Source: Candidatus Heimdallarchaeota archaeon (GTDB taxonomy: Archaea; Asgardarchaeota; Heimdallarchaeia; Hodarchaeales; Hodarchaeaceae). From it: 64,000 nt of DNA. The position numbers and the translations under genes are program-made. This document shows positions 97 through 53,223 of this stretch, piece by piece; position 1 is the stretch's first letter; each line of letters starts with the position of its first letter. The notes beneath the pieces are model-generated. The model did not search any database, had not been told where the DNA came from, and saw only the letters and a list, made by a program, of their open reading frames with translations. The DNA is taken from NCBI GenBank assembly GCA_011364965.1, contig RDOB01000004.1, forward strand, positions 461,508 to 525,507, written 5' to 3'.

Positions 97-624
97 TTAA
101 AAAAGCTTCCTACCCCTAAGCGCTTTTTGAGTAATATCCTCAAAAATTTTCATTAATTTGGGTCTTTCCATATGTCCTATAATATAATAGTCTACCTTAA
201 GTTCATTTGCTAGCTTAATGGCATTAAATTGATTACAATCATCCTTTTTTCGCGTTTGAACTCCAACGATCGCTATAGGGTAGGATAAATCGCCAGAAAT
301 CTCGCGAAACCTCTGAATCCATGTGGAAATCGCGTCAAAATCGGATTGATTGGCACATTCATATATAACAAGACACCCAGACGAATTAAGGATGGTTTGA
401 TACCAAACTTTTTCGTTAGAGATCGTTTCTGGACTAATAGCGGGGATCATGATCTTGATTTTCATCTTTTCTAAATAATCATACTGTCTGGACTGAAAAA
501 CAGGCGGAAGAATGCCTAAAGGGGTATCACCACTAACTCCTCCAATCGCTCTACTGATATACAGATTCAGCTTAGGGTTGCTTCCAAGAAGACAGATCTT
601 CAATACGAATTTTTTCTTTGACAA
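97..624 (-). CDS. Degenerate Ras/Rab-like small GTPase-fold protein
   Basis: KICLLG beta1, SGCLVIYE...FDAISTWIQRF, PIAIVG; no GxxxxGK[ST] or NKxD motif. Confidence 0.7.
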   Translation of the reverse strand: MSKKKFVLKICLLGSNPKLNLYISRAIGGVSGDTPLGILPPVFQSRQYDYLEKMKIKIMIPAISPETISNEKVWYQTILNSSGCLVIYECANQSDFDAISTWIQRFREISGDLSYPIAIVGVQTRKKDDCNQFNAIKLANELKVDYYIIGHMERPKLMKIFEDITQKALRGRKLF

Positions 625-1192
625 CCTCTTCGTTTCCTTTTGTAATTCGCTTTTATATGAACGTTTTAATACTTTAATCGCGATTTCATATTAGCTTTAT
701 ATATAAATAAAGAATTGATCCTGAAGAAGATTCTATCTTCAGTTCTATTCCTTTGTAAGCCTTTGTAATGCATTTCTTTTCCAAAAGGAGGTTCCTATTA
801 TAGCTATTCCACTCATAATGACCCCACCAAGGAAAAATATTCTACCTACAAGGATAAATATGATAAACCAAATGAAACCATAAATTATTTCTTGGAGTAA
901 TAAACAAGTTTATATGAAAATTCTTTAGTGATATTAGCCTTATTCTCTCCATGCCGGACAAAATACACTGTTCCCATGCTTAAGTCTCCTGTGACCCACC
1001 TTTATCTTACTTAAATAATATTGATATCTTTTTTTTGTTTCCAAATAATATTAATTACTTTTGTGTTCGATCATTGCTCCTTACTTCCGTAATGAAGAAG
1101 AAATCCTTAATAAGAGTACCACCATTACACATCTAATCCAATACTAGAGATAAAGAAAGGTTTTCTGTTGGGATTCAAATGAGCTGAAGTCT

Positions 1193-2212
1193 TTGCCAAA
1201 TTATTTTTGGACGCGAAAACGATTTGGGAGATGGCGTTATGACATTATTGTCATTTTTATCACTGCATTGTTTAATTTTGGCAGTATTACTCCAATTATA
1301 CTGTGGGGGATAGATGTATTACGACCTAATCAACCCCCTGAAGCTCATATAATGGATGCAATTGTTGCATTCATCGGATCAACGTTTATGCTACTTTTAA
1401 CAGAATATTTATGCAATATTAGTTACACTATGCTGAAAAATATAATCAATCGTGAAATAGTGAGAGGGAAACCTAAAGAGGAACGCGAGGCGGAAGCAAT
1501 TAATTTCATTTGGAATTCAAAGATTTATTATTTGTGTATTTTACTCATTATAGCACAACTGGGATTTGGAGTGATAGGGGTTGCTTTAGGAGCAACTACT
1601 ATACTTGATGGGATTTTTGGATCACCAGTGATGGTTTTATCTTCTATAATATATGTTGAATTCTTTTGGATTGCATTTGCCCCAACAATGTTAATTTTTT
1701 ATCTTCCTCGCCTCCCAATTCAATTAAATGTATTTGAAAGCGATTCTGCTGGTGGATTAGGAGCCATCGCGAATTATTTATTGAAAGGGTCATTAATACT
1801 AACAGCTTTTGGAACCTTTGCCTTATATTGGGTTATTTCTACGTCTGCGATTGTGTTTGAAATTGGAGTAATGATGCTTGCAGTGATCCTTGCTATTCCA
1901 TTAATATATTTCATCGTACCGACTATTGGGCTACGTTCAATAATGATAAAAGAAAAGTATCGTGTTTTGGATGCTATAAACTATCAAATAGGGGAGGTTT
2001 ATCTCAAACTACATGCAAATGACCAAATCTCCCAAGAAACCTTTATTCAGGTACAAGGTCTAAGCACTCTTAGACAACAAGTTATGTCAATGCACGAATG
2101 GCCATTCAGCTTTACAGGATTGAGGAATTTATTAACATCGTTTCTAATTCCAATAGGAGTTTTTCTCCTAAACAATCTTGATTCTTTACAAACTATTATT
2201 AGTGGCAGCTGA
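1193..2212 (+). CDS. Multi-pass membrane protein, unknown function
   Basis: 339 aa with several hydrophobic helices; DSAGGLG and C-terminal WPF motifs. Confidence 0.7.
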   Translation: MPNYFWTRKRFGRWRYDIIVIFITALFNFGSITPIILWGIDVLRPNQPPEAHIMDAIVAFIGSTFMLLLTEYLCNISYTMLKNIINREIVRGKPKEEREAEAINFIWNSKIYYLCILLIIAQLGFGVIGVALGATTILDGIFGSPVMVLSSIIYVEFFWIAFAPTMLIFYLPRLPIQLNVFESDSAGGLGAIANYLLKGSLILTAFGTFALYWVISTSAIVFEIGVMMLAVILAIPLIYFIVPTIGLRSIMIKEKYRVLDAINYQIGEVYLKLHANDQISQETFIQVQGLSTLRQQVMSMHEWPFSFTGLRNLLTSFLIPIGVFLLNNLDSLQTIISGS

Positions 2213-2310
2213 AAAAATAGGCGAATTTCAAATTGCTATTTGGAAAATCAAAATGTAAGGTTCATTCAATATCCTCTGTAATTCCGTAAAAAAAAGTACT
2301 GAAGAATCCT

Positions 2311-2411
2311 CAACAAACGTATAGACATCAGATCCAATTTGTATGAACATCTTTCCTGCTGCTTTTATTGCTCTCTATCGAGGGAAGTTGGTAAAAAACT
2401 CACTTTCCACA
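2311..2411 (-). repeat. 23S-3'-end/trailer repeat copy (degenerate, lacks the rRNA tip)
   Basis: caacaaacgtatagacatcagatc-caatttgtatgaacatctttcctgctgctttt...gaggga...actcactttccac. Confidence 0.8.
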
Positions 2412-2516: not shown

Positions 2517-3314
2517 TTATGCTTTTGGGATGAGAGGATGTCCACAGCTAGAGCAATATTGGACAAGCGTGAGGTTTGAAGCAGAACAATCCGAACAGAA
2601 CGTAGCATATTGCTGCAACGGAGCATTCCCAATGATCTTCCCATCCCGCATTTCAAGAGCAATATCTCCTATTCTTGCTACGACAGGATTATGAGTGACT
2701 AAAAGGATTGTCTTACCAAATTCGATTTTTAGCTGCTTAAATAAATCAATAATTATCTGTGTATTTTCCGAATCTAGCTCCCCTGTAGGTTCATCAGCCA
2801 AGATGATCTCTGCGTCATTAGCGAGCGCAACTAGAACTGCAATTCGCTGCCGTTCTCCCCCTGAGAGGGCGTGAGGAGCATGGGTAGCGCGGCTATTCAT
2901 ACCCATGCGTGTGAGCAATTCAGTGACTCTTCGTTTTCGTTGTTCTCGAGCCATGCCTAGAATTTTCAAAGGTAACTCAATATTTTCCTCAGCAGTTAAA
3001 ATAGGACTCAAATTCTCGAACTGGAACACAAATCCAACTTTCTCTCGTCGATACTTCGCCAATTCCTTTTCATTCAATCCATTAAGAGAAAGACAACAGC
3101 TAATGATAGTTCCATCTGTCGGAGAATCAATCCCACCAATGAGGTGCAGCAAAGTCGATTTCCCACTCCCAGAGACCCCCATGATAGATACAATTTGGTT
3201 GGACTTAACAGTAAGATTTACTTCGTTTAACGCGTGAATCTCAGAAGTGCCATGCTCAAAGACTTTCTTAAGGTTATGTGTTTGCACAATTGTCTCTTGG
3301 GTCATTTTAATCAC
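2517..3314 (-). CDS. ABC transporter ATP-binding protein (LolD/MacB-like) with C-terminal double Zn ribbon
   Basis: GVSGSGKST, LSGGERQR, ILADEPTG, H-loop; CSDC/CSSC tail. Confidence 0.93.
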   Translation of the reverse strand: MIKMTQETIVQTHNLKKVFEHGTSEIHALNEVNLTVKSNQIVSIMGVSGSGKSTLLHLIGGIDSPTDGTIISCCLSLNGLNEKELAKYRREKVGFVFQFENLSPILTAEENIELPLKILGMAREQRKRRVTELLTRMGMNSRATHAPHALSGGERQRIAVLVALANDAEIILADEPTGELDSENTQIIIDLFKQLKIEFGKTILLVTHNPVVARIGDIALEMRDGKIIGNAPLQQYATFCSDCSASNLTLVQYCSSCGHPLIPKA

Positions 3315-6267
3315 GTAATTGTAAGAAAGAAAGGAAAAATTTCTTCCTAATCAAATATGAGAACGTTATTATAATTGTAAAGTGAGAGAGGATTAATAAG
3401 GTTAAAAACAATAGGATTTTTGGCCAAGGAATTAGAAGTTTCACGGGAATTGGGGGATAAGGAGTAATAAAAAAGTCCATATAGATAGAGGAGGATAAAA
3501 TACCAATCAATATTCCGAAAAAAGCCCCTAATAAGTCAATAGAAAGGAATTCCAAATGAAAAATCCATCTTAGATCTGCAGTTGTCATTCCTCGAGAAAA
3601 ATAAATACCTACTTCATTCTTTCGATCCTTATAGCTTTGGAAGAACAATACTCCCAGACCTGAAGTTACAAGGAGGAAAGTCATAAAAAAGAAAGTATCC
3701 ATAATTGTGATGATACTCCCTGAAGGAGTCATACGAAATTTCTGTTTTAGATCATCAAGAAATTTAATATCTGAATCCCAGAAGGAATTCTGAAATGCTT
3801 CAAAAACAGTCACACGTTCAGCATAACTAGCAGTTGGAGTGATTTTAATGAGCCATGTGATTATTGGTTCTGTTGTAAAAAAATGAGAGGAAAAATTCAC
3901 ATAAGAGAGGAGGAAATCCCTCGAGCAGATCAGTGGGAGAGGAGGGTTGAAGTTCGGTTGGGCAAAGCCAGGAATAAGATAAAAAAAATCCACCACAGTG
4001 AAATTCAGGAGAACTTGGCTCCTAGAAGGGGTGTACAAATCAATCTTAGTGGGGACTATTGTACCCACTTGATTGTCTGCATATTCTCCCTCTCCAAGTT
4101 CCCAGTGTTTAAAGCTAATTGGGGCTAAAGCAGAGGAGTTATGAATGCTGAGTTTCAAGAAAGCCTCTCTTGAAAGACTATCGGGCATAAAATTCTCTTC
4201 AAAATATGTAACTGCCGTAAATGACTCAGGATCAATTGCCAGTATACCACTAGGAAGAATAGAGGCATAAATAGTGCTATTCAAGGGAATATAGATGGAT
4301 GCGCTAATCCAGATCATCTGAGTGACACTCTCAACATAGGAAGACAGATTCAAGAGGTCCTCTGCAGAATAACTCCACAGCTTTCCAAGGTCTCCTGAAA
4401 TACTGATATCTGCCCCTATATCGCGCTTAATTTCACGCAAGGACACACTATATGCTGATTGAGAAAGAATTAACGGGGTGATAGCCATAGAAACAGCCAA
4501 CGCTGTGAGAAAGGCAATATTAGAGAAACGACTACCTCTTCTCAGATAATTCATAGAAACAATACTCCTCAAGCTAGTTTTCACCCCTTTACCCATGAGA
4601 GAGAGATATCGAACGATGAGATCTCTTCGGCCCGTTAAAAGTCGGACGAAAAACAATGAAAAAACTAGAGGGAGAAATGGCAAGAGAGGAGACACAAGTT
4701 TATCAAAAAGTACCGCTAAATCCTGAATGAAGGTAATTGAATCGAATATGTCGAGAATTTCTCTCGCTATCCATAAAGAGAAGAGAATAAGAGTAAAGTA
4801 AAGAATTCGCCTTAAATCTTTTTTTGTGGCAGAAATCCACGATTCAGAAGAATTCATGGGTTTGTGAAGGAGACTGATAGGAACTTTTGCATTGATATTT
4901 CTAGAGGCAAAGAGATTCAGAATATTTCCAAGAATAACTCCTGTTAGCAAGGTTTCCCAGATTAAGGAATCACCTTCAGAAATCAATGGAGTTAACCAAT
5001 CATTGAGAGTCTGTTGATCGGGGATGATGGAATACAAAACAATTATAATAATGAAGGAGAGCACAAGTGAAATCAACGCTGCAGCTAATCCAATTAATGA
5101 CCCCTCTACTACTAGCCAAGATCTAATTTGCATTTTAGAAATACCACGAAATACCCAGATGCCAATGAAGCGTTTATTATTCTCAAATCGGAGAACCTGA
5201 CTGGCAAGCGCTATTAACAAAGCGAAAAGAATAATCGGAAGCATGAGTAAGGTTAATGAATTATGAAGTTGAACTAAATCTTCTGTGAGAAGAGTTAATT
5301 CCTCTAAAAGGGGATTTTGGATAGAAAAAGTGACATCAGTTGGGAGAGCTGCTTCCAAAAAAGCACTAAGGTCTGCTTCAAGGGCTTTCAACAGCCTAGG
5401 TTCTCGGAACCTGTTGAATGACTCAATAATAGCTTCCCTCCTTAAAAATATTGAAAATCCAACATCTTGAAACAGTATATCGCGATTCCCACCCCCAAGC
5501 TTCTCAGAGAGATCAGAATAGGTATCCATATTGACAATTAAGAGTGTCTGGATAGAATTTTGCCTTGAAGTGGCTGGACATAGTAAATCTTTCGCAATAT
5601 TACTCTCACTTGAGAAAGAAAATATTTCAGTTACACGAAGGGGAGAAGAGAGGTTGGAAATAAAGTCAAATTCAATAGATCCATTATACTCGAAGTAATG
5701 GATGTAGAACGTGTCATTGATGGAAACCTGCAGTTTTCTAGCCAGAAAAGAAGAAAGATAAACCTCATTTAAATTCAATGACGCGTTACCAAGTGCGAAG
5801 GGGTGAATACTCGACGAATCAACGAATGAACGAAAGTTTTCTTTATGGATACCCATTCCATATTCGTCGAAAATAGCAAAATTCGCATAGAGACACGAGG
5901 CGTTTTTTGCTAAAGCAAATTGGGAAACCTTTTCATCCTCTCCAAAATAAATAGGTCTGAACCCTCGCTTGACAAAAGTCCGCTCAATAAGCAGAAAATC
6001 CTCTAACTGCTTAGTAAGAGAACGAAGATTGAAATCATCGATAGATTGGGGAAAGTGAAGAGTTAAACGGAGGTCAGAAGCGTCTTGCGATATATCCGCA
6101 ATCATAATAGCATCTTGTAAATATTTTACACCAAAAGTAACACTAAGAGATGCAGTGAGAGTAAAAACTAGCGTAAAAAGAAAAATGAACGAATTCACTC
6201 GCTCTCGACGAAATCGCTGGAAAGCAAGAGGAAATCCCCAAATATATGATGTGAATGAAGCCATCAA
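3307..6267 (-). CDS. FtsX/MacB-type ABC permease
   Basis: 986 aa with two TM clusters carrying R..E.G....RG-like motifs; overlaps the ATPase gene. Confidence 0.85.
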   Translation of the reverse strand: MMASFTSYIWGFPLAFQRFRRERVNSFIFLFTLVFTLTASLSVTFGVKYLQDAIMIADISQDASDLRLTLHFPQSIDDFNLRSLTKQLEDFLLIERTFVKRGFRPIYFGEDEKVSQFALAKNASCLYANFAIFDEYGMGIHKENFRSFVDSSSIHPFALGNASLNLNEVYLSSFLARKLQVSINDTFYIHYFEYNGSIEFDFISNLSSPLRVTEIFSFSSESNIAKDLLCPATSRQNSIQTLLIVNMDTYSDLSEKLGGGNRDILFQDVGFSIFLRREAIIESFNRFREPRLLKALEADLSAFLEAALPTDVTFSIQNPLLEELTLLTEDLVQLHNSLTLLMLPIILFALLIALASQVLRFENNKRFIGIWVFRGISKMQIRSWLVVEGSLIGLAAALISLVLSFIIIIVLYSIIPDQQTLNDWLTPLISEGDSLIWETLLTGVILGNILNLFASRNINAKVPISLLHKPMNSSESWISATKKDLRRILYFTLILFSLWIAREILDIFDSITFIQDLAVLFDKLVSPLLPFLPLVFSLFFVRLLTGRRDLIVRYLSLMGKGVKTSLRSIVSMNYLRRGSRFSNIAFLTALAVSMAITPLILSQSAYSVSLREIKRDIGADISISGDLGKLWSYSAEDLLNLSSYVESVTQMIWISASIYIPLNSTIYASILPSGILAIDPESFTAVTYFEENFMPDSLSREAFLKLSIHNSSALAPISFKHWELGEGEYADNQVGTIVPTKIDLYTPSRSQVLLNFTVVDFFYLIPGFAQPNFNPPLPLICSRDFLLSYVNFSSHFFTTEPIITWLIKITPTASYAERVTVFEAFQNSFWDSDIKFLDDLKQKFRMTPSGSIITIMDTFFFMTFLLVTSGLGVLFFQSYKDRKNEVGIYFSRGMTTADLRWIFHLEFLSIDLLGAFFGILIGILSSSIYMDFFITPYPPIPVKLLIPWPKILLFLTLLILSHFTIIITFSYLIRKKFFLSFLQLRD

Positions 6268-6785: not shown

Positions 6786-7154
6786 CTCCAGATTCCTAGG
6801 ACTGCATTAATCTCAGTCAAACTCAAAAAAACTAAAAGGAATCAGTATTAATCCTTTTCTATTTACACGGAATTTCTTGATCAGTAAGGATTATAGAACA
6901 TTATATATTTATTTCCATATTTTTCTCATCTCTATTTTATATTTTAGATAGTAATTTAAACTCCATGCAAAGTTTTAAGTGATTTAGTTGAATATCTCAA
7001 TTGCAAATTTTTGCGTTATTATAGAATCTTCCGAATACTCACTAAATTAGTATATTAAGTTCATTTCGAAGAACTACACAGAATGTATATTTTATAAGGA
7101 ATGAAATTCCATAAGACTTCTTGACTTGTTAGTAACGTTTCAGGTGGGATAGAT

Positions 7155-7814
7155 TTGCTAAAAAATGAAGAAGGGAATCACCAAGGTTTCTATTTAATTC
7201 AATTCAAGAAAGCACTGTATTGGATGGTAATTGTCTTAAGCGGGTATCTCTTGTATTACCTGAGTTGGGCGTTCTGGATCGCAATTAATGCTATCATTAG
7301 CTCTGGATTTCAATTTGAAGCTATTATCATAAGTCTAGCTTGGATTCCAGCGTTGGCCTTGGGATGGGCTATAGTCTCAGCTGGGATGACCTACCTCTTT
7401 CCAACGACCTTTCGGTTAATTCCGACCCTAGCTTGGATGTTGGGATGGATTGGAGGTGTAGGGGTGTTATACAAAAAAAAAACCACACCTGATGCTAAGC
7501 TTACATTAGGAACACTGCTATTCTTTCTTGGTGCTATTGTAGTGCTTGTCTTTGGAAAAGAGATCTTTAGCTTCTATACTTCGACTCTGATGCTTTTACA
7601 TCTGGATCCTCTTATTTATCTTGGGACAGTGGATAGGATAGGGTTTTACTGGCTTCTACCTCTCTGGCTTCTGAGCTGGAGTTTTTTCTGGTTGAAGCGG
7701 ATTCCCCAAATCAGATTAGAGGATAAAATCCTCTATAACTCTACGCTACTTTGGGTGGTATGGTTTATTATTCTCAACCTCTTTCTGTGGATGTATGCCC
7801 CGATTACTATCTAG
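7155..7814 (+). CDS. Membrane protein, 'MLKNEE' paralog family
   Basis: Clear similarity to 21528..22196 and 54121..54798 (YWLLPLWLLSWSFFWLK). Confidence 0.8.
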   Translation: MLKNEEGNHQGFYLIQFKKALYWMVIVLSGYLLYYLSWAFWIAINAIISSGFQFEAIIISLAWIPALALGWAIVSAGMTYLFPTTFRLIPTLAWMLGWIGGVGVLYKKKTTPDAKLTLGTLLFFLGAIVVLVFGKEIFSFYTSTLMLLHLDPLIYLGTVDRIGFYWLLPLWLLSWSFFWLKRIPQIRLEDKILYNSTLLWVVWFIILNLFLWMYAPITI

Positions 7815-9769: not shown

Positions 9770-12586
9770 ATGAATCTAAAACCTGCAAAAAACGTATTTA
9801 TCGTTCCTCATACTCATTGGGATCGTGAGTGGTATCTTCCATTCCAACAATTTCGGTACAAATTAGTACAATTAGTGGATATTCTATTAACGATCTTGGA
9901 TAGCGAAGAATCCTTTAGATTTACCTTTGATGGTCAAACTAGCATCCTAGAAGATTACTTGGAAATCCGACCTGAAAATGAATCCCGATTATTAGGATAT
10001 ATTAGAGAGAAAAAAATCGCTGTAGGACCATGGTATGTCCTTCCTGATGTTTGGTTAGCGAATCAAGAAAGTTTAATCCGTAACTTGGAGTACAGTCAGG
10101 ATTTAGCTAATAGATATGGTATAAAACAAATGAAAATTGGCTATTTACCTGATACTTTTGGCTTTACTAGAGGAATTCCTCAAATAATTGGAGATTTAAC
10201 CGATTTCAGAGCAATAGTTGTATGGCGAGGGGTTCCACCAGAAATAAAGACTGTTCCCTTTTTATGGCGGAGTAGTCCAGCTTCCGAGAAACCTGTATTC
10301 ACAAATTATCTCCCATTTGGATATGGTAATGCTGCATTACTTCCAGAGAGTACAGAAGAATTAGAAACGGAATTAAAATCTTTGGTAAGTCAATTAGAAC
10401 CTTTCTCACCAATACCAATCTATCTCTTACTACATGGGACGGATCATCAAGTTCCCTCACTTAAGCTAAGTAAGACACTCCCTCAAATAAAAGTACCAAA
10501 CATGGCCTTTCAAATATCACTGCTTGAAGATTATATAGAATCGCTTCTTAAGTTGATTAAAGAAGTAGACTTCCCTCCCCCAGAATATAGTGGGGAATTA
10601 CGATCTGCAGCTCGGGCGCATATTTTAGTAGATACCTATTCAGCGAGAATGTGGATTAAATTATGGAATCAGAAGGTTGAAGACCTTTTAACTCATTATG
10701 CCGAACCTTTATGTTGCTATAGTTGGCTTTACTTCCATAAAGAGTACCCTTCCTCATTTTTAACAGAGGCATGGAAACACCATTTGCAAAATCAAGCACA
10801 TGATTCAATTTGTGGGTGTTCTATTGATCAGACTCATGAAGAAATGAAAGCTCGCTATTCTTGGACTCAAACCATTGCAGAAACCATAATAGAAGATGAG
10901 CTACAATCCCTGGAGGCACAAGCACAGACAACAGATCACGACTCGATTATTGTATATAATCCTACAAATTGCTCTGATCTTCCACTCCTTGTAGAATTTA
11001 CTATTTCTGGGGAAAATAAATATCATAGTGTTATCTCTTCAAAAGGAGAGGTCTATAAGTTACAACCTTTTCAAGATTCAAGGGAAAAACTTTGGGAAAT
11101 GACTGTTGGATCGTTAAAATTACGGGCATTGATGCGACTGCTTCCTGGAAGAAAAATAATGACCTTTTATATCAATGAGGTCTCCATTTTCGATAATAGC
11201 ACCAATCCGAAGATATGTGAAGCTCAGTTGATTGTTGGAGACAAACCACTTGGAGAGTTTGATCTAGATCAAATGAAGAAGAGCATCAATTCCCGAATCC
11301 AAAGTGGCAAATACACGCATTTTCACATGATCGTTACAAAAGAGATGAAGATGAATTATATTGCTCTTATCCCGCTCCAAGCCTGGAGCTTTTCGCAATT
11401 AAAACTTATGGAAGAGGGTAATATTCCTGACAATAGACCCAGAACACAAATTTCTAAGGATTGGGTCATACATCCCTCCTATGAAGTAAGGTTTCAGAAG
11501 GATGGATCATTTAATTTATTTGAAAAAGAATTAAACCTTCAATTCAGAAACTTACACTTCTTTGAGGATTGGGGCGATCGGGGAGATGAATATACCTTTG
11601 GGAGAATCGGCCCCGAATCTGTCAAAATATTCGATATTAAAAGGGAAGTGACACTCAAAGGACCACTTGTGTATGAGATTCAACAATCTATGACTCTCAA
11701 GCTCTTTCAAGAGGTTGATGATGCACGGGAAAAACGAATCGGATCAGTTAAAATTCCGGTGACGACTAAATTTAAATTTTATAGTAATATCAATCGAATA
11801 GATATCCAAACAACATTGATCAATACAGCCAAAGATCATCGCCTTAGAATTTGCTTTCTTTTGCCTTTTAAGACCCAGTACACACATACTTCAACTCATT
11901 TTGGAATTATTAAACGTTTTGCAGGCCCGATTGGAGATGATAGTTATTTAGAAAGGCCCTCAGGGATTCAATCCCAAAAACGATTTATTAGGGTTAATGA
12001 TCCGTCAAGTGAAGCTGCGTTCACTTTAATGAATTGGGGCATTCCAGAAGTAGAATTACGGGATGAATCGGTGTTAGCGATGACATTAATTCGCTCCATC
12101 GGTTGGTTGGCCCAATCAAACTTTCCTGAAAGACCTGAATTAGCTGGACCCGCTATAGCTACCCCGAATGCCCAAGAATTAAATAGAGAATATAGATTTT
12201 TATATAGTATTCGAACTCATACCAAAAAAGAACCACTTTTCAAAACTGCAGACCATTCTGAAGCTTTTTCATTATTACCTAAAGCACTATATTTAGCAAA
12301 GAAAATTTTACCTGCTAAATTAGTTGAACCGATGTTTAAAATCTCTGATGCTAGAATAAGGGTCTCTTCGATGCGAATACGGAACAAGAATATCCTTTTA
12401 ACGTTATTTAATCTTGATGAAGCTGAAGTTACGGTTACAATCGAATATGAAAAGAAGATTACACGCCTAAGTCAAATCCTTATAGATAGCTCATTAAAAG
12501 GAGCCCCCCGTAATGGAGAGCTGATATCGAACTTAACGTTTCACCCTCATGAGATTAAACTACTCTCACTTGGATTGAAAGAATAA
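9770..12586 (+). CDS. Glycoside hydrolase family 38 alpha-mannosidase
   Basis: HTHWDREWY, FDGQ, GPWY, YLPDTFG, HDSICGCSID. Confidence 0.93.
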   Translation: MNLKPAKNVFIVPHTHWDREWYLPFQQFRYKLVQLVDILLTILDSEESFRFTFDGQTSILEDYLEIRPENESRLLGYIREKKIAVGPWYVLPDVWLANQESLIRNLEYSQDLANRYGIKQMKIGYLPDTFGFTRGIPQIIGDLTDFRAIVVWRGVPPEIKTVPFLWRSSPASEKPVFTNYLPFGYGNAALLPESTEELETELKSLVSQLEPFSPIPIYLLLHGTDHQVPSLKLSKTLPQIKVPNMAFQISLLEDYIESLLKLIKEVDFPPPEYSGELRSAARAHILVDTYSARMWIKLWNQKVEDLLTHYAEPLCCYSWLYFHKEYPSSFLTEAWKHHLQNQAHDSICGCSIDQTHEEMKARYSWTQTIAETIIEDELQSLEAQAQTTDHDSIIVYNPTNCSDLPLLVEFTISGENKYHSVISSKGEVYKLQPFQDSREKLWEMTVGSLKLRALMRLLPGRKIMTFYINEVSIFDNSTNPKICEAQLIVGDKPLGEFDLDQMKKSINSRIQSGKYTHFHMIVTKEMKMNYIALIPLQAWSFSQLKLMEEGNIPDNRPRTQISKDWVIHPSYEVRFQKDGSFNLFEKELNLQFRNLHFFEDWGDRGDEYTFGRIGPESVKIFDIKREVTLKGPLVYEIQQSMTLKLFQEVDDAREKRIGSVKIPVTTKFKFYSNINRIDIQTTLINTAKDHRLRICFLLPFKTQYTHTSTHFGIIKRFAGPIGDDSYLERPSGIQSQKRFIRVNDPSSEAAFTLMNWGIPEVELRDESVLAMTLIRSIGWLAQSNFPERPELAGPAIATPNAQELNREYRFLYSIRTHTKKEPLFKTADHSEAFSLLPKALYLAKKILPAKLVEPMFKISDARIRVSSMRIRNKNILLTLFNLDEAEVTVTIEYEKKITRLSQILIDSSLKGAPRNGELISNLTFHPHEIKLLSLGLKE

Positions 12587-14596: not shown

Positions 14597-15538
14597 TTAT
14601 TTGTTTAGTTGTAACAAAGAGTAGCTTATAGCTGGGTGACTTTGAATATTCGGATGAAGAAGTCCAGTTTCATTTAGTAATCTTGGATCAAAGGTTTTGT
14701 TATTATAAAAGCGCTTTAAACACTCTATTTCAGATTCAGTTATTTTTAATTGGATGGATCTTATGAATTCAATTGCTAAATTTTTCCAAGTATCAAACAT
14801 TTTATCGTTCTGTTGATTCTTTCGGGGAAGTACTTGGCGTAAATGTTCATCAAGTCTGATATTCGATAAATGAGAGTCAGGATCTACTTTTGGTAAGTAG
14901 AAACGACTATCTGTAAGGTTTTTCAGTATCAAACACTTCCTAAAGACGTGTTGGTTAAATTTGGCTGTGCTAATTGCTGCTACATCAAACAAATCTCTAG
15001 CAGATTTTCGACCTAAGAGGGTTCCACACTTTGAACTAAAAAGTTCCTCTCTTTGTGGTAATTGAATTTCTGACTCGTCTCCAGTCTTAGGATGGCGAAA
15101 AACACAGTTTATATCTTCAGTTAAGAATGGAATTCTATTCATATATCCTATTTCGACTTTGAAACTAGAACTTCGGACGGATCCGTATTTCACATCAAAA
15201 CGAGTGAGAGGATAACTGGCATTTATCTTAATATCAGTTTTATTATATCCTAATCGCACCAGGACTTCTTTGACAATAGAATCGATTTGATCTCGTTCTA
15301 TTCCCCAATCATTTGTACTATCCATTATTCTGAAATCAAAATCAAGATCTACTGATAAGCGTCTATATTGGCCTAATTCGATTAAATTAAGAGCTGTACC
15401 CCCTACAAGACGAAGGTATTTCTGAATATAAGGAATATCATACAATCGGTCAAGTACATCGGAAATTCGATAGACTTTTTCAACAGTTCCAAAATTATAC
15501 TCCTTTTCGATCGTTACTGACGATAATCCATTTGTCAA
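14597..15538 (-). CDS. AbiEii-family nucleotidyltransferase toxin (type IV TA)
   Basis: LVGGTAL...RLSVDLDF, K...L.R..ARDLFD. Confidence 0.88.
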   Translation of the reverse strand: MTNGLSSVTIEKEYNFGTVEKVYRISDVLDRLYDIPYIQKYLRLVGGTALNLIELGQYRRLSVDLDFDFRIMDSTNDWGIERDQIDSIVKEVLVRLGYNKTDIKINASYPLTRFDVKYGSVRSSSFKVEIGYMNRIPFLTEDINCVFRHPKTGDESEIQLPQREELFSSKCGTLLGRKSARDLFDVAAISTAKFNQHVFRKCLILKNLTDSRFYLPKVDPDSHLSNIRLDEHLRQVLPRKNQQNDKMFDTWKNLAIEFIRSIQLKITESEIECLKRFYNNKTFDPRLLNETGLLHPNIQSHPAISYSLLQLNK

Positions 15539-15617
15539 GAATGCATCCTTTCCTAATTCATAATCTATTCAATTACTATCCAGTTATCGAGTTTGTAAAA
15601 TCATTAAATATTTCTTT

Positions 15618-21146: not shown

Positions 21147-21527
21147 GAATACCTAGAAGTACGAAAGGGGCGTTTTTAGGGGTTGAATTTTTCCCTCTAC
21201 CCTGTTAACACGTCTAGGAAGGTCCAACACGTCCAATGGAGAAAGTTTGATATATGATCAGTTAGAGATCCCGATCATTATTTAATTTATTCGCACCGAG
21301 AATACTATTTTATATTTTAGAAATTAAAAAGATCATAATTCAGAGATGTAAGTGAATAATTTGCATATTGTTAATGCAGATCTAATAGTTAACTTTGAAT
21401 CTTCCAAATACTCATTAAATTAATATTTAAGGTTCTTTTCCAAGAATTACACAGATAAAATATTTTATAAGAAATGAAATCCCATTAGACTTCTTGATTT
21501 TTTAGTAACGTTTTAGGTGGGATAGAT

Positions 21528-35563: not shown

Positions 35564-35605
35564 ACATTTTCACCTAATTACAAAAAGCCTTCTAAATACT
35601 TAATT

Positions 35606-38248: not shown

Positions 38249-38295
38249 AGAGGGCCAAACCCTGAATCATAATTTTTAGGGGATTTTCAACTAAA

Positions 38296-38428
38296 AAAAG
38301 TGAGAAACATTCCATTTAGGTGATATCTTGCTGAGAGTTGAAAGAGTTAACCATTTCCCACGAAGAAAAATGTGAGAGAAAACGAAATAGAAATTACTTA
38401 AACACAAAAACAAATTGCATTTTTCGTC
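38296..38428 (-). repeat. Second conserved non-coding element (trailer extension)
   Basis: tgagagttgaaagagttaaccatttcccacgaaga; contiguous with the main repeat. Confidence 0.7.
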
Positions 38429-38494
38429 TAACGAACGTACAGACATCAGATCACGCGCCAAATTTGTATGAACATCTCTCCTGCAACTTCTATC
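38429..38494 (-). repeat. 23S-trailer repeat copy (partial)
   Basis: taacgaacgtacagacatcagatcacgcgccaaatttgtatgaacatctctcctgcaacttctatc. Confidence 0.88.
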
Positions 38495-38576: not shown

Positions 38577-39011
38577 TTAACATTTGACTTTATCCTCAAA
38601 CCACGCAATTACTTCCGTTATTTCTGGGCATGTTGTTCCATCAGCAATTTTCAATGCTAAATCCACAATCTCATCCTGAGAAGTTATAATGGTACATCCA
38701 TTAATATAAAGAAAACTTAGCATGATAGAAACACTTGTCCTCTTATTAGCATCATTAAATACATGCCAAGCATTAGGCCAATATAGATATGCTGCTGCTT
38801 TCGCTGCTATTGATAGATATGAATCCATGTTAAAATAGGACTCTTGTGGTTTATCTAGACTAGCTCTAAGCTTATCATCATCAAGTATCCCCCAATCACT
38901 GACATCTTCCCCAGTTGAGGCATAGTAAGTTTTTATCCAATTATAAATATAAACAGCAGTATTGTAATCGATGTATTCACAGGTTTGCGAGTTTGTCGAG
39001 TGCTTCCCCAT
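38577..39011 (-). CDS. Doc/Fic-family toxin
   Basis: HVFNDANKRT Fic/Doc motif; L.ASLDKP. Confidence 0.88.
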   Translation of the reverse strand: MGKHSTNSQTCEYIDYNTAVYIYNWIKTYYASTGEDVSDWGILDDDKLRASLDKPQESYFNMDSYLSIAAKAAAYLYWPNAWHVFNDANKRTSVSIMLSFLYINGCTIITSQDEIVDLALKIADGTTCPEITEVIAWFEDKVKC

Positions 39012-39090: not shown

Positions 39091-39439
39091 GTTTATTAAT
39101 TTTCTATCTTCCAATTTTGTTCGACAACCTTATGTTCTTAGTATATTTAATTATAATGACTTATTCTTATCTTGCTATGTAATGTGAATTCCCTAAATAC
39201 AGGAGACTAAAATACCTTTATAAAATCATCGATTTGAATCTAGTAGATTTTCTTCAGATGCTGAATTGTTAAATAGGTTAATTTGTGTGATTATGGATTA
39301 ATTCTCTTATAAGAACTGAATTTTTTTTTGTACATGAGAACAAGGATTGACTAATGGTAGATAAGTTAATAGAAGTCAAATAGTGGTATCAAAGTAAGCT
39401 TTATATTAATTTATGTCTTAGTTGTTTTACTTCTCGTGA

Positions 39440-39584
39440 AACAAACGTACAGACATCAGATCAAGCGCCAATTCTATAGTTTCTCCAGAATACTGCTTCT
39501 ATCGCTCTCTCCGCGGGAGTTTCTTAAGGAAATCAATTTCCACACTATTTATTGAATAGTAGCCCTCCTGCAGTGAGGGACAGC
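39440..39584 (-). repeat. 23S-3'-end/trailer repeat copy
   Basis: aacaaacgtacagacatcagatcaagcgccaatt...aatcaatttccacac...agtagccctcctgcagtgagggacagc. Confidence 0.92.
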
Positions 39585-39655
39585 CAACGAATAAGAAGAC
39601 CACTATGATTAGGAAGATTTATGAACAAGCACTGCTTTAAAAAACGAGAAATCCG

Positions 39656-40189
39656 ATGAGTGCGGAAAACGAGTATTTACTGAAGATCCCTATAATAGGA
39701 GAAAATACCTTACTTAATGCCAAGTTCGGTAGATTAACAGCAGAGGGGAAATTTAATGAGAATTCATTCCCATCATATGGAGTCGAAATCGTTACCAAGA
39801 AGATCAGAGTTGAGGAAGACAACGTAAAATTGATTCTAGTGATTGTTGCAGGAAGCTGCCCAAATTATTATCGAGGGGCATCTGGGTGCGTAATTCTATT
39901 TGATAAAGGAACAGTAAAGACCTTTACACAAGTAACCCGCTGGTTAGCAGAGTTTCGAAAATCTATTCCAGAGGTTACTATACCGATCGCTATAGTAGGG
40001 GTCAAAACCGAGGACCAAGAGGAGTTGATCACCCCCGAGGAAGGGCAGCAACTTGCTGAAAAATTGCAGATTGCATATTATGAAACCACCCTCACAGATA
40101 AAGCTCATGTAGAATATATCCTCACCGAAATATCGAAGAAAGCTCTAGCTACCAAAGAGTGGTTCGTCATTCAGGACGAAAAACCGTGA
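39656..40189 (+). CDS. Rab-like pseudo-GTPase
   Basis: PSYGVEIVTKKI, YYRGASG, PIAIVG, YYET; P-loop and G3 motif missing. Confidence 0.8.
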   Translation: MSAENEYLLKIPIIGENTLLNAKFGRLTAEGKFNENSFPSYGVEIVTKKIRVEEDNVKLILVIVAGSCPNYYRGASGCVILFDKGTVKTFTQVTRWLAEFRKSIPEVTIPIAIVGVKTEDQEELITPEEGQQLAEKLQIAYYETTLTDKAHVEYILTEISKKALATKEWFVIQDEKP

Positions 40190-44624: not shown

Positions 44625-45152
44625 TTATCGCGAAGGTAGCGCTTTTCGGGCGAGGGTAGAAAGAATGTCCTCGAAAATAACGGAATCTGTTTGAGGCAGT
44701 TCATAGTAAGCCATACCACTCGAATCCGCAAAAGCTTGGCCAGATTCAGTAGGAACAGCATCAGAGTCAGAAAGGATCCCAATCAATGCTTTAGGAATCT
44801 GAGGGTTAGAAGTATAGGTAAGAAAGGTATGAAAAAGACTCTGACTCTGCATAAATGATTCAGGACTGGCTTTATTAAAAAGAAAGAGAACTCCATAAGA
44901 AGATCCTTTCAAATGCTGTAAAGAATTCGGGAGTAAAGGAACCCAAAGATGCACTAGCATCAATTTAACATGAGTACGATCGAGGAGAATCTTTCGGGTG
45001 TCTATATCGATTTGGAAAGTCCTAAATCGATTCATTTTGGCTTTTGTAACTTTATACTGCATAAAAGACGAAATAAGGCCAAAAGTAATCTCAAGCTCCC
45101 CTAGCAGGACGATCTTCATTAAATACTCTTTTTCAGACATGAGAAGGCACAA
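44625..45152 (-). CDS. Rab-like pseudo-GTPase
   Basis: MKIVLLG, GVLFLFNK..PESF, IPKALIG, GQAFAD..GMAYYE. Confidence 0.75.
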   Translation of the reverse strand: MCLLMSEKEYLMKIVLLGELEITFGLISSFMQYKVTKAKMNRFRTFQIDIDTRKILLDRTHVKLMLVHLWVPLLPNSLQHLKGSSYGVLFLFNKASPESFMQSQSLFHTFLTYTSNPQIPKALIGILSDSDAVPTESGQAFADSSGMAYYELPQTDSVIFEDILSTLARKALPSR

Positions 45153-46081: not shown

Positions 46082-46600
46082 ATGACCATAGAGAATAAAA
46101 AAGGATATATCTTGAAGATCTGTGTGCTAGGGGAAAATACCGAACACAATCGGAGATTTAGTCGGTTAACAGCTACAGACACATTCGAGACCGATTATAT
46201 GTTAGAATTTGGAGTAGATATACCTACGAAGAAAATAACCATTGAGAAGAGGGCGGTAAAACTCATACTGGCAACAATTATGGGAGATGAATGGGATATT
46301 GAGTCACCTAGAGCTGCCTATTATCAGGAAGCCAGTGGTTGCTTGATATTATACGAAACCAAAAATCCTACGAGCTTAAAGCGCGCTGAAGACTATTATA
46401 GGGACTTCACTATGCATTCAAAAGGACCCCCCATACCGATTGCGTTGGTAGGAATCAGAACTTCCGAAAAGCAAAACGAATTAAATGCAGGGAAGCAACT
46501 CGCGGATCAATTAGGCGTGGGGTACTATGAAACCACCCTTTCGGATAAGCAGCAGGTAGAATTCATCCTCACCAACATGGCAGAGAAAGTCATCGCATAG
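46082..46600 (+). CDS. Rab-like pseudo-GTPase
   Basis: LKICVLGENTEHN, FGVDIPTKKI, YYQEASG, PIALVG. Confidence 0.8.
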   Translation: MTIENKKGYILKICVLGENTEHNRRFSRLTATDTFETDYMLEFGVDIPTKKITIEKRAVKLILATIMGDEWDIESPRAAYYQEASGCLILYETKNPTSLKRAEDYYRDFTMHSKGPPIPIALVGIRTSEKQNELNAGKQLADQLGVGYYETTLSDKQQVEFILTNMAEKVIA

Positions 46601-46953
46601 GAGCATTAATTTCAAAAAAAAGCTAACTGGTTATAATGAGATTAATGGAAAAAATCCTGTTTCCTGGAAGTAGACGAGAATAGCGATGTAAACTCCAAAA
46701 GTAATAATGACCAAAAGGAAGAGAGGCAAGTAATAATAAGCTGTAGGAATCACTTTCACTTCAATATGCAGATCTCCTCTGACCTTCTGACGTAAGCTAT
46801 TACGGGTCTTAAAGGCCCCCTCAAAACGGAAAATCTCATTATTCTTTGCGTTAAAAGGGATAAATATTCTGAAAGAATTCACCTAATATTAAGATTGTGA
46901 GAATTGAAACAAGTTATATTATCAGGTTTCCCTGCAAAAAACAAGAAATATCT

Positions 46954-47067: not shown

Positions 47068-47568
47068 TCACTTGTTCAGATATTTTCTCAATAAATGTTT
47101 AACCACAGTATCAAGCTCATTTCTATTCGTTAAAGTGCAATCAAAATAGGAACAATTGAGGAGTTGTTCAGTAAGTACTTGTGCCTCTTCCGTAGAGACC
47201 TCTTCAGAATCGGAAGTGATACCAACCAATACCATAGGAATAGCAGGCTCTGGAATATGTTTTCGGAATTCCTCGTACCGTTTGGAAATATTATTAAATG
47301 AAGTACGATCCTTTTTCTCAAAAAATATAATACAGGCTTTTGATCCTCTAAAATAACTTGCCATAGTTCTAGAAAATCTTGCTTGAGCTGAAATTCGGGT
47401 AAAAATTAACGAAATATTATGATTATCAAACCTGATCTTCATGGTATCCGTATCTAAACCTAATGTATCAAAAGAATCTTGAGACGACTTAGAATAAGTA
47501 TAAATGGCTACGAACTTTTTAGATACTTCAGAACTCCCAATTAAAGCAATTTTGAATGTGTTTTCCAT
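47068..47568 (-). CDS. Rab-like pseudo-GTPase
   Basis: FKIALIG, DTLGLD, SAQARFSRTMASYFRGSKA, PMVLVG. Confidence 0.8.
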   Translation of the reverse strand: MENTFKIALIGSSEVSKKFVAIYTYSKSSQDSFDTLGLDTDTMKIRFDNHNISLIFTRISAQARFSRTMASYFRGSKACIIFFEKKDRTSFNNISKRYEEFRKHIPEPAIPMVLVGITSDSEEVSTEEAQVLTEQLLNCSYFDCTLTNRNELDTVVKHLLRKYLNK

Positions 47569-47594
47569 TCACTAATCCCATTTTTATTTTGCTG

Positions 47595-47672
47595 TATGAA
47601 CAGTCATTCCTTAGAGTAAAAGCTCGAAATACAGATCATTTGGGAATATCCGAATGACAGTTGAAAGAGCTA
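47595..47672 (-). repeat. Second conserved non-coding element
   Basis: gtcattccttagagtaaaagctcgaaa...aatgacagttgaaagagcta; similar to 28411-28490. Confidence 0.65.
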
Positions 47673-48009
47673 GGAATACTCAATGCAGATGCAATAAGAA
47701 GGATTCCCCATACGCTCAGGAACAAAACTTTAATTGAAACCTTTATCAACCTTTAGATGTTGAATTTGGGTGGTATGAAAACACCAAAAAAGTACTAGAC
47801 TTTATGAAAATTCATAAATTAACTCGCATCTTAATTTTATCTGAAGGGATTATTTATTTTCAGCTTCTTTCATTAATCGAGAAATCTAGATAAGGACGAT
47901 GAATATTTGTAAATGTGAGACCAAATAACACAAGAGAAGTTACTCAACTAACCATTAATCCCCAGACACAACAAAATGTAATTGAGCTAGAATTCTGAAT
48001 AGGAGAAAT

Positions 48010-50851: not shown

Positions 50852-52150
50852 TTAAAGAAAACTAAACCAAATTGCTAAAATTTGACTAACGAAAGGAATA
50901 GCAAATAACAGGGTAATTAGAGATTTATTGAAAGGAAGAACATTTTCACTTTTTATTCGATTCAGACAATCAGTTAGAAAAATCAATTCAATAGTATTGA
51001 AATCTTCCTCTTCCTCACTTATATCTTTGTAGTAAAGATCTACACTTTGTATTATTCTTTTCAAAAGTAATTTTCTTAATCTATGATACTTAATCAACGG
51101 ATCTAATCCCAATTCCTTTGTATTGAAGAATAATAACACGAATAAAACCATAATAATTATTATGATTATAATTGATGCATAATTGGTAAATCCCTGGGCC
51201 TTGTATAGCAAATCAAATCCGAATGCTAAGAAAATACTATCTGTTAGGAGAACCCAATATAATTGAGGAAAATAATAAGGAAACAAGAAGTTCCAAATTT
51301 TCTTGATATCAGAATTATAAGGAATTGAAGAAATCTTGACTTCACTTCGTTTTATAATTCCTTTGAGAAGACTTCTCGATATAACCGGAATACCCAAATA
51401 CATTTTCCTTGTAAGAATCCAAGAGATATGAAAAGGATTTCGAACCTCGCTAGATTTGTGTAGAAAAATTAATTCTTTTCCAGAACAATATTCAACCAAC
51501 TTTTGCCTTTTCTCTGGAGGGTTGATCCAGATTATATATTGAATTACGATGATTTGGCCAAGGAAAGCTAAAGATGCAATTAATGTAATAACTCCAATCA
51601 GATTTGGCGTACTACCTTGTAAAAAAGCTTCAACTGATGATATGTTAATATTTATTATAAATGTACTAAAATTAAAGATCTGCATCTCCTCTAATGAAGC
51701 GATAATAAACGTAAAATATATAACTAGCGGAATTATATCAGATAAGCTAAATGATTGAGTAATACGGTTGATTTTTTCAACAAATTTGGATGATTGAGGA
51801 CCTTCTCTCTGTTTAGAATGGTACCTTACGAGAAATACGCTAGATATCCATACAATATAGAAAGAAAAGAATACGATAGAGATATAGACTAGCATTGATG
51901 GATATCGCCTTTCGAGCTCGGTTACTGTCCCATATATCGGGAAAAAGGATAAGATGAAGAAAACAAAGACAAAAATAAGGAATAGTCCTAGAACTCGGAA
52001 GGATCTATCATTTTTCTTGTCCTTATAGCGATCTGGATCGATTCTATCTAATTCATTCTCAGAGAATAAAATATCCAACTCGTTTTCCTCCCATTCTAGT
52101 TTAAGATCAAGCTCTGATACATCCATTCGGTATTTTTCCCATCGGTTCAT
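50852..52150 (-). CDS. Hypothetical multi-pass membrane protein
   Basis: 432 aa with about 7 TM. Confidence 0.65.
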   Translation of the reverse strand: MNRWEKYRMDVSELDLKLEWEENELDILFSENELDRIDPDRYKDKKNDRSFRVLGLFLIFVFVFFILSFFPIYGTVTELERRYPSMLVYISIVFFSFYIVWISSVFLVRYHSKQREGPQSSKFVEKINRITQSFSLSDIIPLVIYFTFIIASLEEMQIFNFSTFIININISSVEAFLQGSTPNLIGVITLIASLAFLGQIIVIQYIIWINPPEKRQKLVEYCSGKELIFLHKSSEVRNPFHISWILTRKMYLGIPVISRSLLKGIIKRSEVKISSIPYNSDIKKIWNFLFPYYFPQLYWVLLTDSIFLAFGFDLLYKAQGFTNYASIIIIIIIMVLFVLLFFNTKELGLDPLIKYHRLRKLLLKRIIQSVDLYYKDISEEEEDFNTIELIFLTDCLNRIKSENVLPFNKSLITLLFAIPFVSQILAIWFSFL

Positions 52151-52488
52151 TTTCTATCCTCCTAAAAATCATTAATTTTCTACATCATACTTATCTAGTC
52201 AGGTTTTCTTGATTTTCGCATTTTATATTATATTATTATTAGGGCGAAGATGTTGGTATTGGGCACAAATCATGACTTTTCTAACATGCTATAGGCATCA
52301 AATAATAATGAAAATATCTCATTTTTAAAAATAAAATTTGACATTATATGGTTATCTATTTCGGATAAGAAGAGGCAAATGAACAACCTATCACGTTAAG
52401 ATTCGATCTTTTAGGATAATATAAAAGGAAAAAGGTTTGAAATATTTTAGAAAATGATTCCAAGAAAGAAACAGTAATTTTTTTTTCC

Positions 52489-52618
52489 CAACGAACGTAC
52501 AGACATCAGAGTAATAACCAAAACTAGACTAGACCAACCAAGCTGGAACACCGCTTCTACAGCTACCTGATGAGGGACCATCTCAATTTCCAAACAGGCA
52601 ACATTCCCGCGCTGAGGT
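52489..52618 (-). repeat. 23S-3'-end/trailer repeat copy (degenerate tip)
   Basis: caacgaacgtacagacatcagag...ccgcttctacagctacctgatgagggaccatctcaatttcca. Confidence 0.88.
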
Positions 52619-52659
52619 AGAAAACAAAAATTTTTTTTTAAAATCTTGAAGCAATAAAA

Positions 52660-53223
52660 ATGCGAGACTTGATGACTATGGAAGAGTATTTCAGAACCAT
52701 CTGTATAGTGGGAACCTCAGAAAAAGCTACAAAAGGGGTAATCCAATGGAATGAGGTCTGGGGAAACGTTGCTTCAACAAAAGTGGGGGTGAATATCGCC
52801 ACTCAGCGTATCCAAATTGATGATAAGTCCGTGATAATATTTCTTTTCGCATTTGAAAAAAACTGGATGCCAGTAGCTCGAACTCAGCGATATGCTTTAA
52901 CAAGTGCTGTTGTGATTGCATTTGATAAGGGAGATAGCAAGGCACTTGATTCAATCCAGAATGTAATAGAAGAAATAAAGCAAAGTCAGAAGAAGCGAAC
53001 AGAATATGTGGAAGCACGAGCTTTCCCCAGTGCTTTCCCCCCTCGAGAGCATCCACCTATGGCATTGATGGGATTTCGCACCGAAAGAGAAGAAATATCA
53101 ACCTACAAGGGAGAACAATTAGCAGAAACACACGGGATAGCATATTATGAAGGCAAACTAGCAGAGAAAGAAATGCTTAATACCATCATCAGGGATATGA
53201 TACGGGAATCATTCCGCCAATAG
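52660..53223 (+). CDS. Rab-like pseudo-GTPase
   Basis: TICIVG, STKVGVNI, AVVIAFD, PMALMG, GEQLAE.HGIAYYE. Confidence 0.75.
   Translation: MRDLMTMEEYFRTICIVGTSEKATKGVIQWNEVWGNVASTKVGVNIATQRIQIDDKSVIIFLFAFEKNWMPVARTQRYALTSAVVIAFDKGDSKALDSIQNVIEEIKQSQKKRTEYVEARAFPSAFPPREHPPMALMGFRTEREEISTYKGEQLAETHGIAYYEGKLAEKEMLNTIIRDMIRESFRQ

Follow-up and report, generated by a model that had tools for sequence, protein, structure and literature searches.

A Rab-fold pseudoGTPase clade linked to rRNA-trailer-bounded gene arrays in Hodarchaeales archaea

Introduction

Small GTPases are the flagship eukaryotic signature proteins (ESPs) of Asgard archaea, and surveys count them as switches. The class i pseudoGTPases, which keep the fold of a G domain but not its nucleotide-binding motifs, are known from eukaryotic proteins such as CENP-M, p190RhoGAP (domains pG1 and pG2), the dynein LIC G domain, and the AAGAB N-domain (PMC4080450, PMC5593906, PMC4359372, PMC12490416). 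Gene cassettes in archaea are known from integrons and from clusters of attC sites without an integrase (CALINs), in an account that does not mention GTPase-like cargo (Ghaly et al. 2022, PMC9668308). Our literature search found no paper joining Asgard archaea with pseudoGTPases, and the papers pairing archaea with the word pseudoGTPase describe no archaeal case. Here, we analyze a family of Rab-like proteins without nucleotide-binding motifs encoded in a stretch of 64,000 nucleotides (the window), which is the final 64 kb of contig C12 (RDOB01000004.1) of a Candidatus Heimdallarchaeota archaeon of the order Hodarchaeales (assembly GCA_011364965.1; 2.97 Mb in 16 contigs, 87% complete). Eight open reading frames (ORFs) of the window had been singled out in a first-pass annotation as Rab-like pseudo-GTPases carried as cargo of a cassette array. 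Coordinates without a contig name are window positions.

Results

Seven genes with a Ras/Rab fold and no nucleotide-binding motifs

The Pfam Ras profile has 54 matches genome-wide, nine of them inside the window, which holds 2% of the genome bases. All eight candidate ORFs are uninterrupted, as the first-pass annotation had reported, and seven of them exceed the Pfam Ras (PF00071) cut-off of 21.6 bits, P0002 matching in two stretches. Because some of the Pfam scores are low, a family profile (A3) was built, comprising P0004, P0006, and the C-terminal half of P0002 together with five relatives found in other samples. A3 excludes P0001, P0005, P0007, and P0008 and is thus an independent check on these four, all of which it matches over their full length. 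The eighth ORF, P0003, matches neither Pfam nor A3, reaches a probability of 1% against the family in profile-profile comparison with hhalign, and has no homologue among 5.8 billion proteins; a faint likeness to the family is confined to its final ~90 residues. Since P0003 fails every test and its membership is unconfirmed, the original count of eight genes with nine domains is reduced to seven genes with eight domains (P0001, P0002 twice, and P0004 to P0008). The eight ORFs are as follows.

97-624, minus strand: P0001, 175 aa, the most degenerate member; G1 GSNPKLNL, G4 GVQTR; Pfam Ras 7.4e-07 (C-terminal half), A3 4.5e-22 (profile positions 3-169)
28776-29903, plus strand: P0002, 375 aa, pseudo-G domains at residues 1-172 and 173-345 and a C-terminal zinc ribbon at ~347-371; Pfam Ras 4.8e-37 in two stretches, with zinc-ribbon matches
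34646-35563, minus strand: P0003, 305-aa ORF, membership unconfirmed
39656-40189, plus strand: P0004, 177 aa, predicted Rab-like fold; G1 GENTLLNA, switch II shortened; Pfam Ras 1.3e-18
44625-45152, minus strand: P0005, 175 aa as listed, likely start ATG at 45140; Pfam Ras 1.2e-06, A3 1.2e-25
46082-46600, plus strand: P0006, 172 aa; G1 GENTEHNR; Pfam Ras 1.8e-16
47068-47568, minus strand: P0007, 166 aa; G1 GSSEV-SK; Pfam Ras 3e-21, A3 2.7e-40; paralogue at C2:2166-2696
52660-53223, plus strand: P0008, 187 aa; Pfam Ras 5.7e-05, A3 1.8e-24

Motifs G1 to G5 were read by column-wise alignment to a canonical paralogue of the same genome. The GxxxxGK[ST] P-loop is missing from all nine domains originally listed, as are DxxG, NKxD, and SAK, and the G3 Asp is substituted in nine of nine, which bears out the statement that every domain lacks the first three of these motifs. 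Lost from each domain are the Gly-Lys-Thr of the P-loop, the G3 Asp, the Asn and Asp of G4, and the Ser-Ala-Lys of G5. Their places are taken by GENTLLNA, GKNTEHNC, or GSSEV-SK at G1, by IVAGS, ITAGQE, or RISAQA at G3, by GVKTE, GIKTE, or GITSD (general pattern G[IVF]x[TAS]x) at G4, and by ETTLT at the G5 position. The scaffold motifs GVD, YYRGA, PIALVG, and YYET, formerly ascribed to the whole family, are clear in the C-terminal half of P0002, P0004, and P0006 and weaker in P0001, P0005, P0007, and P0008. Prenylatable C-terminal cysteines (CC, CXC, or CAAX) occur in none of the eight translations, the cysteines of P0002 being those of its zinc ribbon.

Structure prediction agrees with the profile matches in placing two of these domains among Rabs, which have the G-domain fold of a six-stranded sheet and five helices. 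The AlphaFold2 (AF2) model of P0004, computed from an eight-row alignment, has a mean predicted local distance difference test (pLDDT) value of 85 and a predicted template modeling score (pTM) of 0.84, and Foldseek aligns it with Rab23, Rab11, Rab8, and the Thorarchaeota Rab 7ezb at template modeling (TM) scores of 0.8-0.86 (~0.82 for 7ezb). Helix 1 of the model starts two residues past strand 1, leaving no phosphate-binding loop. In the AF2 model of P0002 (pLDDT 76), both halves show the strand and helix order of a G domain; the C-terminal half superposes on Rabs with Z of ~20 and a root mean square deviation of 2.0-2.5 over ~160 residues, and the N-terminal domain reaches an hhalign probability of 96.5 over residues 77-168 only, its structure agreeing in secondary-structure order only. 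The tandem dead-dead architecture of P0002 recurs in other metagenomic proteins (P0073, P0077, P0078, P0086, and P0125). Predicted fold and motif loss together support the view that the seven genes encode Ras/Rab-fold proteins of the class i pseudoGTPase type.

A single P-loop-less clade beside a canonical Rab-like GTPase

The canonical relative in the same genome, C12:173668-174204, carries GSGSVGKT, DTAGQ, NKKD, and ETSAK, is near-invariant across Heimdall/Hodarchaeales assemblies, and is a single-copy gene in a core-genome context. Window members are 31-48% identical to it, and the copy on contig C8 up to 61%. Two genes of the same genome, C8:10246 and C14:194476, share 51-61% identity with it and have the P-loop GASKY-KT and an intact DTAGQ without NKxD; GETKL-KT is a second G1 form in this basal, DTAGQ-keeping subgroup. 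A tree was built of 97 domains from the source genome, 20 sister genomes, and an additional Hodarchaeota assembly. In it, the 50 P-loop-less domains all group to one side of a branch with a Shimodaira-Hasegawa-like approximate likelihood ratio test (SH-aLRT) support of 86 (95 with two intermediates from genome G019 counted in), and their neighbours are the canonical GSGSVGKT orthologues. The terminal branches of the P-loop-less copies are several-fold longer than those of the canonical orthologues, and with such long branches the inner branching order of the clade is unsafe. The topology is compatible with one motif loss followed by radiation from a Rab-like GTPase of the C12:173668 type.

Could these proteins still be ligand-controlled switches whose non-canonical residues bind a nucleotide or a different small molecule, like some class ii/iii pseudoGTPases and atypical GTPases? 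The basal subgroup with its DTAGQ and Lys-Thr (GASKY-KT, GETKL-KT) speaks for such a role, as do the GSSEV-SK motif that P0007 and its paralogue conserve, lysine included, and the conservation of pocket-lining segments within subfamilies. However, the window members have other residues in place of Lys/Thr in G1, Asp in G3, Asn and Asp in G4, and SAK in G5, and the P0004 model offers no loop to hold phosphate, so that ligand control appears rather unlikely.

The clade extends well beyond one genome. Searching 1.84 billion cluster representatives with A3 gave 140 proteins below 1e-30, and motifs were classed in the best 149 matches; ~100 of the N-terminus-covering domains among these 149 are without a P-loop, 60 of them lacking G1, G3, and G4 and 39 retaining DxxG alone. 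The named P-loop-less representatives are Hodarchaeota/Hodarchaeales, and P-loop-less relatives with the labels Hermodarchaeota and Thorarchaeota were among the matches of the initial homologue search. P0006 clusters at ≥90% identity with P0075, a protein from another sample. Within the genus, the number of P-loop-less genes varies from 0 to 9 per genome.

Other architectures occur as well. Five relatives in the same Rab-like clade, from other metagenomes (P0011, P0014, P0017, P0019, and P0023), carry an N-terminal C2H2-like finger (C..C...H....H), with the P-loop intact in some and dead in others. Three to five tandem Rab-like domains are found in P0074, P0079, P0082, P0080 (2322 aa), and P0156 (1706 aa), some of these multi-domain proteins being fully canonical and some combining live and dead domains. 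The canonical gene itself lies 17 nt behind a gene for a 321-aa protein without a Pfam family and is followed by one for a 250-aa, weakly Arf/Ras-like protein (L006:6687-8982, corresponding to G000:C12:172686-174981); both products are candidate partners.

Selective constraint on the pseudoGTPases

The first-pass annotation had proposed the ratio of nonsynonymous to synonymous substitution rates (dN/dS) among paralogues as a check, with values near 1 as the sign of decaying pseudogenes. By the Nei-Gojobori method with codon bootstrap, dN/dS is 0.06-0.62 in the 14 P-loop-less pairs for which it is defined and 0.22-0.62 in the 13 with dS of 0.18-1.24. In all but one of the 14 pairs (13 of 14) the upper limit of the bootstrap stays under 1, and dN/dS exceeds 1 in no pair tested. 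P0007 and its paralogue C2:2166 give 0.50 (confidence interval [CI], 0.34-0.69), and P0004 and the C-terminal half of P0002 give 0.40 (CI, 0.24-0.61); canonical orthologues from the same genus give 0.02-0.09. The pseudoGTPases are constrained, but four- to ten-fold more loosely than their canonical parent.

These values largely refute the idea that the genes are dead Rab-like duplicates drifting neutrally in a junk-rich accessory region. That idea would account for the fast evolution, with end branches several times the canonical length, and for the loss of every catalytic motif, and the orphan ORF P0003 might be a far-gone relic of such decay. However, eight domains of ~170 codons remain open in a genome of 36% G+C despite mutual identities of 13-57%, orthologous sublineages persist across different genomes at 76-80% identity, and within a subfamily the sequence that replaces the P-loop is conserved in its turn (G-[EK]-N-[TS]-x-x-N-x-x-F-G-R-L). 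Neutral decay is thus very improbable.

Preferential linkage of dead copies to a repeat

A repeat of ~150 nt occurs in 22 copies on C12 between contig positions 440878 and 525036, with all array copies on the same strand; elsewhere in the genome there are four copies on the 11-kb contig C8 and one weak stray match. The copies beside pseudoGTPase genes and two further elements at these junctions are as follows (repeats located with nhmmer).

28565-28724, plus strand: repeat copy, 52 nt left of the P0002 start
39438-39593, plus strand: repeat copy, left of P0004
44452-44603, plus strand: repeat copy, 22 nt from the P0005 stop codon
46952-47022, plus strand: half repeat, 5' part only, 46 nt from the P0007 stop codon
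52486-52636, plus strand: repeat copy, 24 nt left of the P0008 start
39542-39700, plus strand: mosaic tract composed of the 3' end of the repeat, a leader of ~75 nt that has a TATA-like TTTAAAAA box, and the initial ~15 codons of P0004
45165-45230, minus strand: second non-coding element (E2), directly upstream of P0005

Six of the eight listed ORFs lie 22-63 nt right of a repeat copy, so the remark that several stand right next to one was correct. P0008 is the sole gene of its cassette, flanked by the repeats at 52486-52636 and 53399-53538. Adjacency as such was rejected as a GTPase-specific trait: most cassettes, whatever their gene family, begin or end 20-80 nt from the right end of a repeat, and this spacing is therefore a property of the array. 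What distinguishes the family is how often it is found there. One of the eight listed ORFs (the unconfirmed P0003 included) is the first gene in 6 of the ~17 cassettes of the window. Genome-wide, 8 of the 10 confirmed pseudoGTPase genes lie within the repeat-bearing 96 kb (3.2% of the assembly), compared to none of the ~30 canonical GTPases.

The same preference is seen in related genomes. In 21 genomes of the genus, repeats were sought with a sequence-only repeat model (R1) and GTPase relatives with A3; R1 finds clustered repeat copies in 15 of the 21, and A3 finds 130 close relatives, which by motif comprise 60 P-loop-less, 64 canonical, and 6 mixed copies. A repeat lies within 5 kb of 21 of the 60 P-loop-less copies and of none of the 64 canonical ones (Fisher P = 2.7e-8, a value that overstates the strength of the association, as related genomes and paralogues are not independent). 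The enrichment is present in the source genome and nine sister genomes, and in one more Hodarchaeota assembly a tandem of three dead copies is found at 0.8 kb from a repeat. The first-pass annotation had seen in such arrays a possible route for the expansion of an ESP family; this holds for the dead clade only, as the ~30 canonical GTPases of the source genome and the 64 canonical relatives in sister genomes are never near arrays.

Nature of the repeat and content of the arrays

The repeat copy at 53399-53538 runs unbroken into a 23S rRNA fragment covering model positions 2721-2973, which identifies the repeat as 23S rRNA tip plus trailer. A full 23S gene was not found in the assembly. The Rfam search of the window at gathering thresholds yielded the 23S fragment only; the repeat is therefore not a known RNA family. 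Orphan 23S tails are present at 53512-53822 in the window, at G003:C184:257-566, and at G008:C8:27759-28068 and 46367-46669; those of G003 and G008 have the same model limits (2721-2973) and also stand beside a repeat copy, twice in one array of G008. From these recurrent limits, the long repeat unit appears to comprise the final ~310 nt of 23S and the trailer. Conserved stems are confined to the 3' two-thirds of the repeat. RNAalifold gave almost no consensus and no attC-like end-paired fold on an indel-rich alignment, and because of these indels R1 was built on sequence only.

The ends of the repeat resemble RYYYAAC and GTTRRRY by eye. In the source genome (assembly incomplete), PF00589 tyrosine recombinases match only at C9:581481 and C1:548, neither beside the array, and the 13 kb that lie upstream of the first repeat encode none. 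No PF00589 match is present on the array-bearing contigs of G003, G008, G011, and G017 (assemblies incomplete) or within 400 kb of the repeat in G010, a single contig. A classical integron was rejected on finding no IntI beside the arrays in these six incomplete genome assemblies. The description of the array as mobile gains no support from this: in none of the six genomes does a recombinase accompany the arrays, and RNAalifold indicates no classical attC fold for the repeat. Cassette mobility is nevertheless plausible. The mosaic tract at 39542-39700 is 85-98% identical to L003 (contig C8) at ~10880-11040, before the C8 pseudoGTPase gene, compared to ~50-60% nucleotide identity between P0004 and that gene outside the tract; such a sharp mosaic at a cassette junction suggests gene conversion or recombination and would be a sign of ongoing exchange.

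Might the pseudoGTPases themselves serve the cassette system, as a maintenance or recombination accessory factor brought along by each cassette family? They are the most frequent family beside the repeat, in several genomes and in both orientations, and no nearby recombinase was found to explain the arrays. However, most cassettes of the window have no pseudoGTPase gene, and many family members lie away from any detected repeat. To our knowledge, no role in DNA transactions is established for the Ras fold. We see hardly any likelihood in this explanation.

The cargo of the arrays is mixed. It includes ABC/FtsX modules, MFS, GH38, a metallo-beta-lactamase-fold protein, AbiEii/AbiEi, a methyltransferase, GNAT-SCP2, TnpB, a MazG-like protein, a 900-aa TPR protein, a thioesterase, a subtilase, Fic/Doc, PadR, a CPT-like kinase, and a nucleotidyltransferase. 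Among these, the AbiEii/AbiEi pair is at 14597-16541, the Fic/Doc-family gene at 38577-39011, and TnpB (OrfB_IS605 plus Cas12f-like TNB) at 19468-20733. Company of this kind raises the alternative that the pseudoGTPases are conflict genes (defence, counter-defence, or addiction), decoys of host Rab-like GTPases that would intercept GTPase-targeting effectors. AbiEii/AbiEi, Fic/Doc, GNAT, the MazG-like protein, the nucleotidyltransferase, and TnpB fit such a setting, as do the 0 to 9 copies per genome, selection that is relaxed or diversifying, and the mosaic recombination tract. However, dN/dS above 1 is seen in no tested pair, no conserved partner gene is seen, a large share of the cargo is unremarkable (ABC/FtsX and MFS transporters, GH38, subtilase), and 39 of the 60 P-loop-less sister copies lie away from a detected repeat. 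A conflict-related decoy role, suggested by variable copy number, relaxed selection, and toxin-antitoxin company, is possible, and no test favours it; as an explanation for the family we hold it to be unlikely.

Several further features of the arrays were noted. P0003 and an upstream ORF of 260 aa, both without a family, make up an orphan two-gene cassette at 34646-36388. Paralogous modules of an ABC ATPase and a ~900-aa FtsX permease at 2517-6267 and 58658-63057 each come first to the right of a repeat, and a gene of 219-225 aa with its upstream region is present in three paralogous copies (6850-7814, 21223-22253, and 53816-54855); both are signs of duplication inside the array. A further E2 copy (47596-47689) lies upstream of P0007, and others (28412-28603 and 38295-38464) abut repeats; the long E2 copies contain a 10-bp inverted repeat (AACTGTCATT / AATGACAGTT). 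Read by eye, A/T-rich TATA-like boxes precede several start codons by 20-35 nt.

Discussion

A clade of Rab-fold pseudoGTPases is kept under selection and carried preferentially as cargo of cassette arrays in Hodarchaeales, and its members probably act as nucleotide-free binding modules; for this reading as a whole, we estimate a probability of roughly 0.6. From the loss of the motifs, we infer that the domains do not bind nucleotide. Nucleotide-free or dominant-negative GTPases hold exchange factors. By analogy, pseudoGTPases deprived of the nucleotide switch would be constitutive protein-binding modules, adaptors or decoys, that occupy or bridge the partners of Rab-like GTPases; carried preferentially as the first gene of cassettes in repeat-bounded arrays, they would provide strain-variable tuning of the GTPase network. 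Constitutive binding is the most likely role, judging from known pseudoGTPases such as CENP-M, the p190RhoGAP pG domains, and AAGAB and from dominant-negative GTPases.

Some observations weigh against this reading. C8:10246, C14:194476, and their relatives keep DTAGQ and Lys-Thr in a P-loop one residue shorter, and judging by these residues, members of this subgroup might still hold nucleotide. The statistical dependence among related genomes and paralogues lessens the force of the repeat association, and the 39 sister-genome P-loop-less copies that have no detected repeat within 5 kb make the array link a preference, not a rule. No conserved neighbour gene pointing to a partner was seen beside the family.

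A broader proposal would be that Hodarchaeales possess a hitherto undescribed type of cassette system behind the 23S gene, bounded by rRNA tip and trailer and without an integron integrase, whose signature cargo is a radiating family of dead Rab-like decoys or exchange-factor traps directed against agents that attack the eukaryote-like GTPase network of the cell. We regard this as doubtful; if true, it would place an arms-race layer over the ESP system in the closest archaeal relatives of eukaryotes.

About a quarter of the Rab-like copies of the genome are dead (10 confirmed versus ~30 canonical), and in the sister genomes nearly half of the closest relatives are (60 versus 64), meaning that GTPase counts overstate switching capacity. 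PseudoGTPases, until now known mainly from eukaryotes, would already be a large family in archaea, and the preferential array link implies that some members of an ESP family belong to a flexible gene content that varies between strains. Proteins of the clade are also concrete candidates for binding assays and for the search for partners in the lineage closest to eukaryotes.

How does this locus compare with known systems? Like CALINs, it is a one-directional repeat array with compact accessory cassettes (toxin-antitoxin, acetyltransferases) and no adjacent integrase, and by eye the repeat ends resemble R'' (YYCAAC) and R' (GTTAGG). Unlike CALINs, the repeat is ~150 nt long, copies the 23S tip and trailer, and appears to have a branched internal fold, not a single end-paired hairpin; many cassettes are multi-gene, and no IntI was found in six genomes. 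In comparison with canonical Asgard Rab-like GTPases (Thor-Rab, PDB 7ezb, PMC10933270, and the C12:173668-174204 product of the same genome), the pseudoGTPases share the fold and the beta-1, interswitch, YYRGA, and beta-5 segments, whereas their nucleotide motifs are all replaced and their dN/dS is 4-10 times higher; the canonical C12:173668 gene, unlike them, is never near the repeat. With the eukaryotic class i pseudoGTPases they have in common the G-domain fold, the loss of G1 to G5, a presumed nucleotide-free state, and a presumed use as protein-interaction modules, and the tandem dead domains in one chain recall p190RhoGAP. They differ in being archaeal, in standing alone as proteins of 166-187 aa, and in forming a fast-turning family of 0-9 members per genome that sits in a cassette array. 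What is new is how large the dead clade is, that it has one origin, and that it is linked to rRNA-trailer-bounded arrays.

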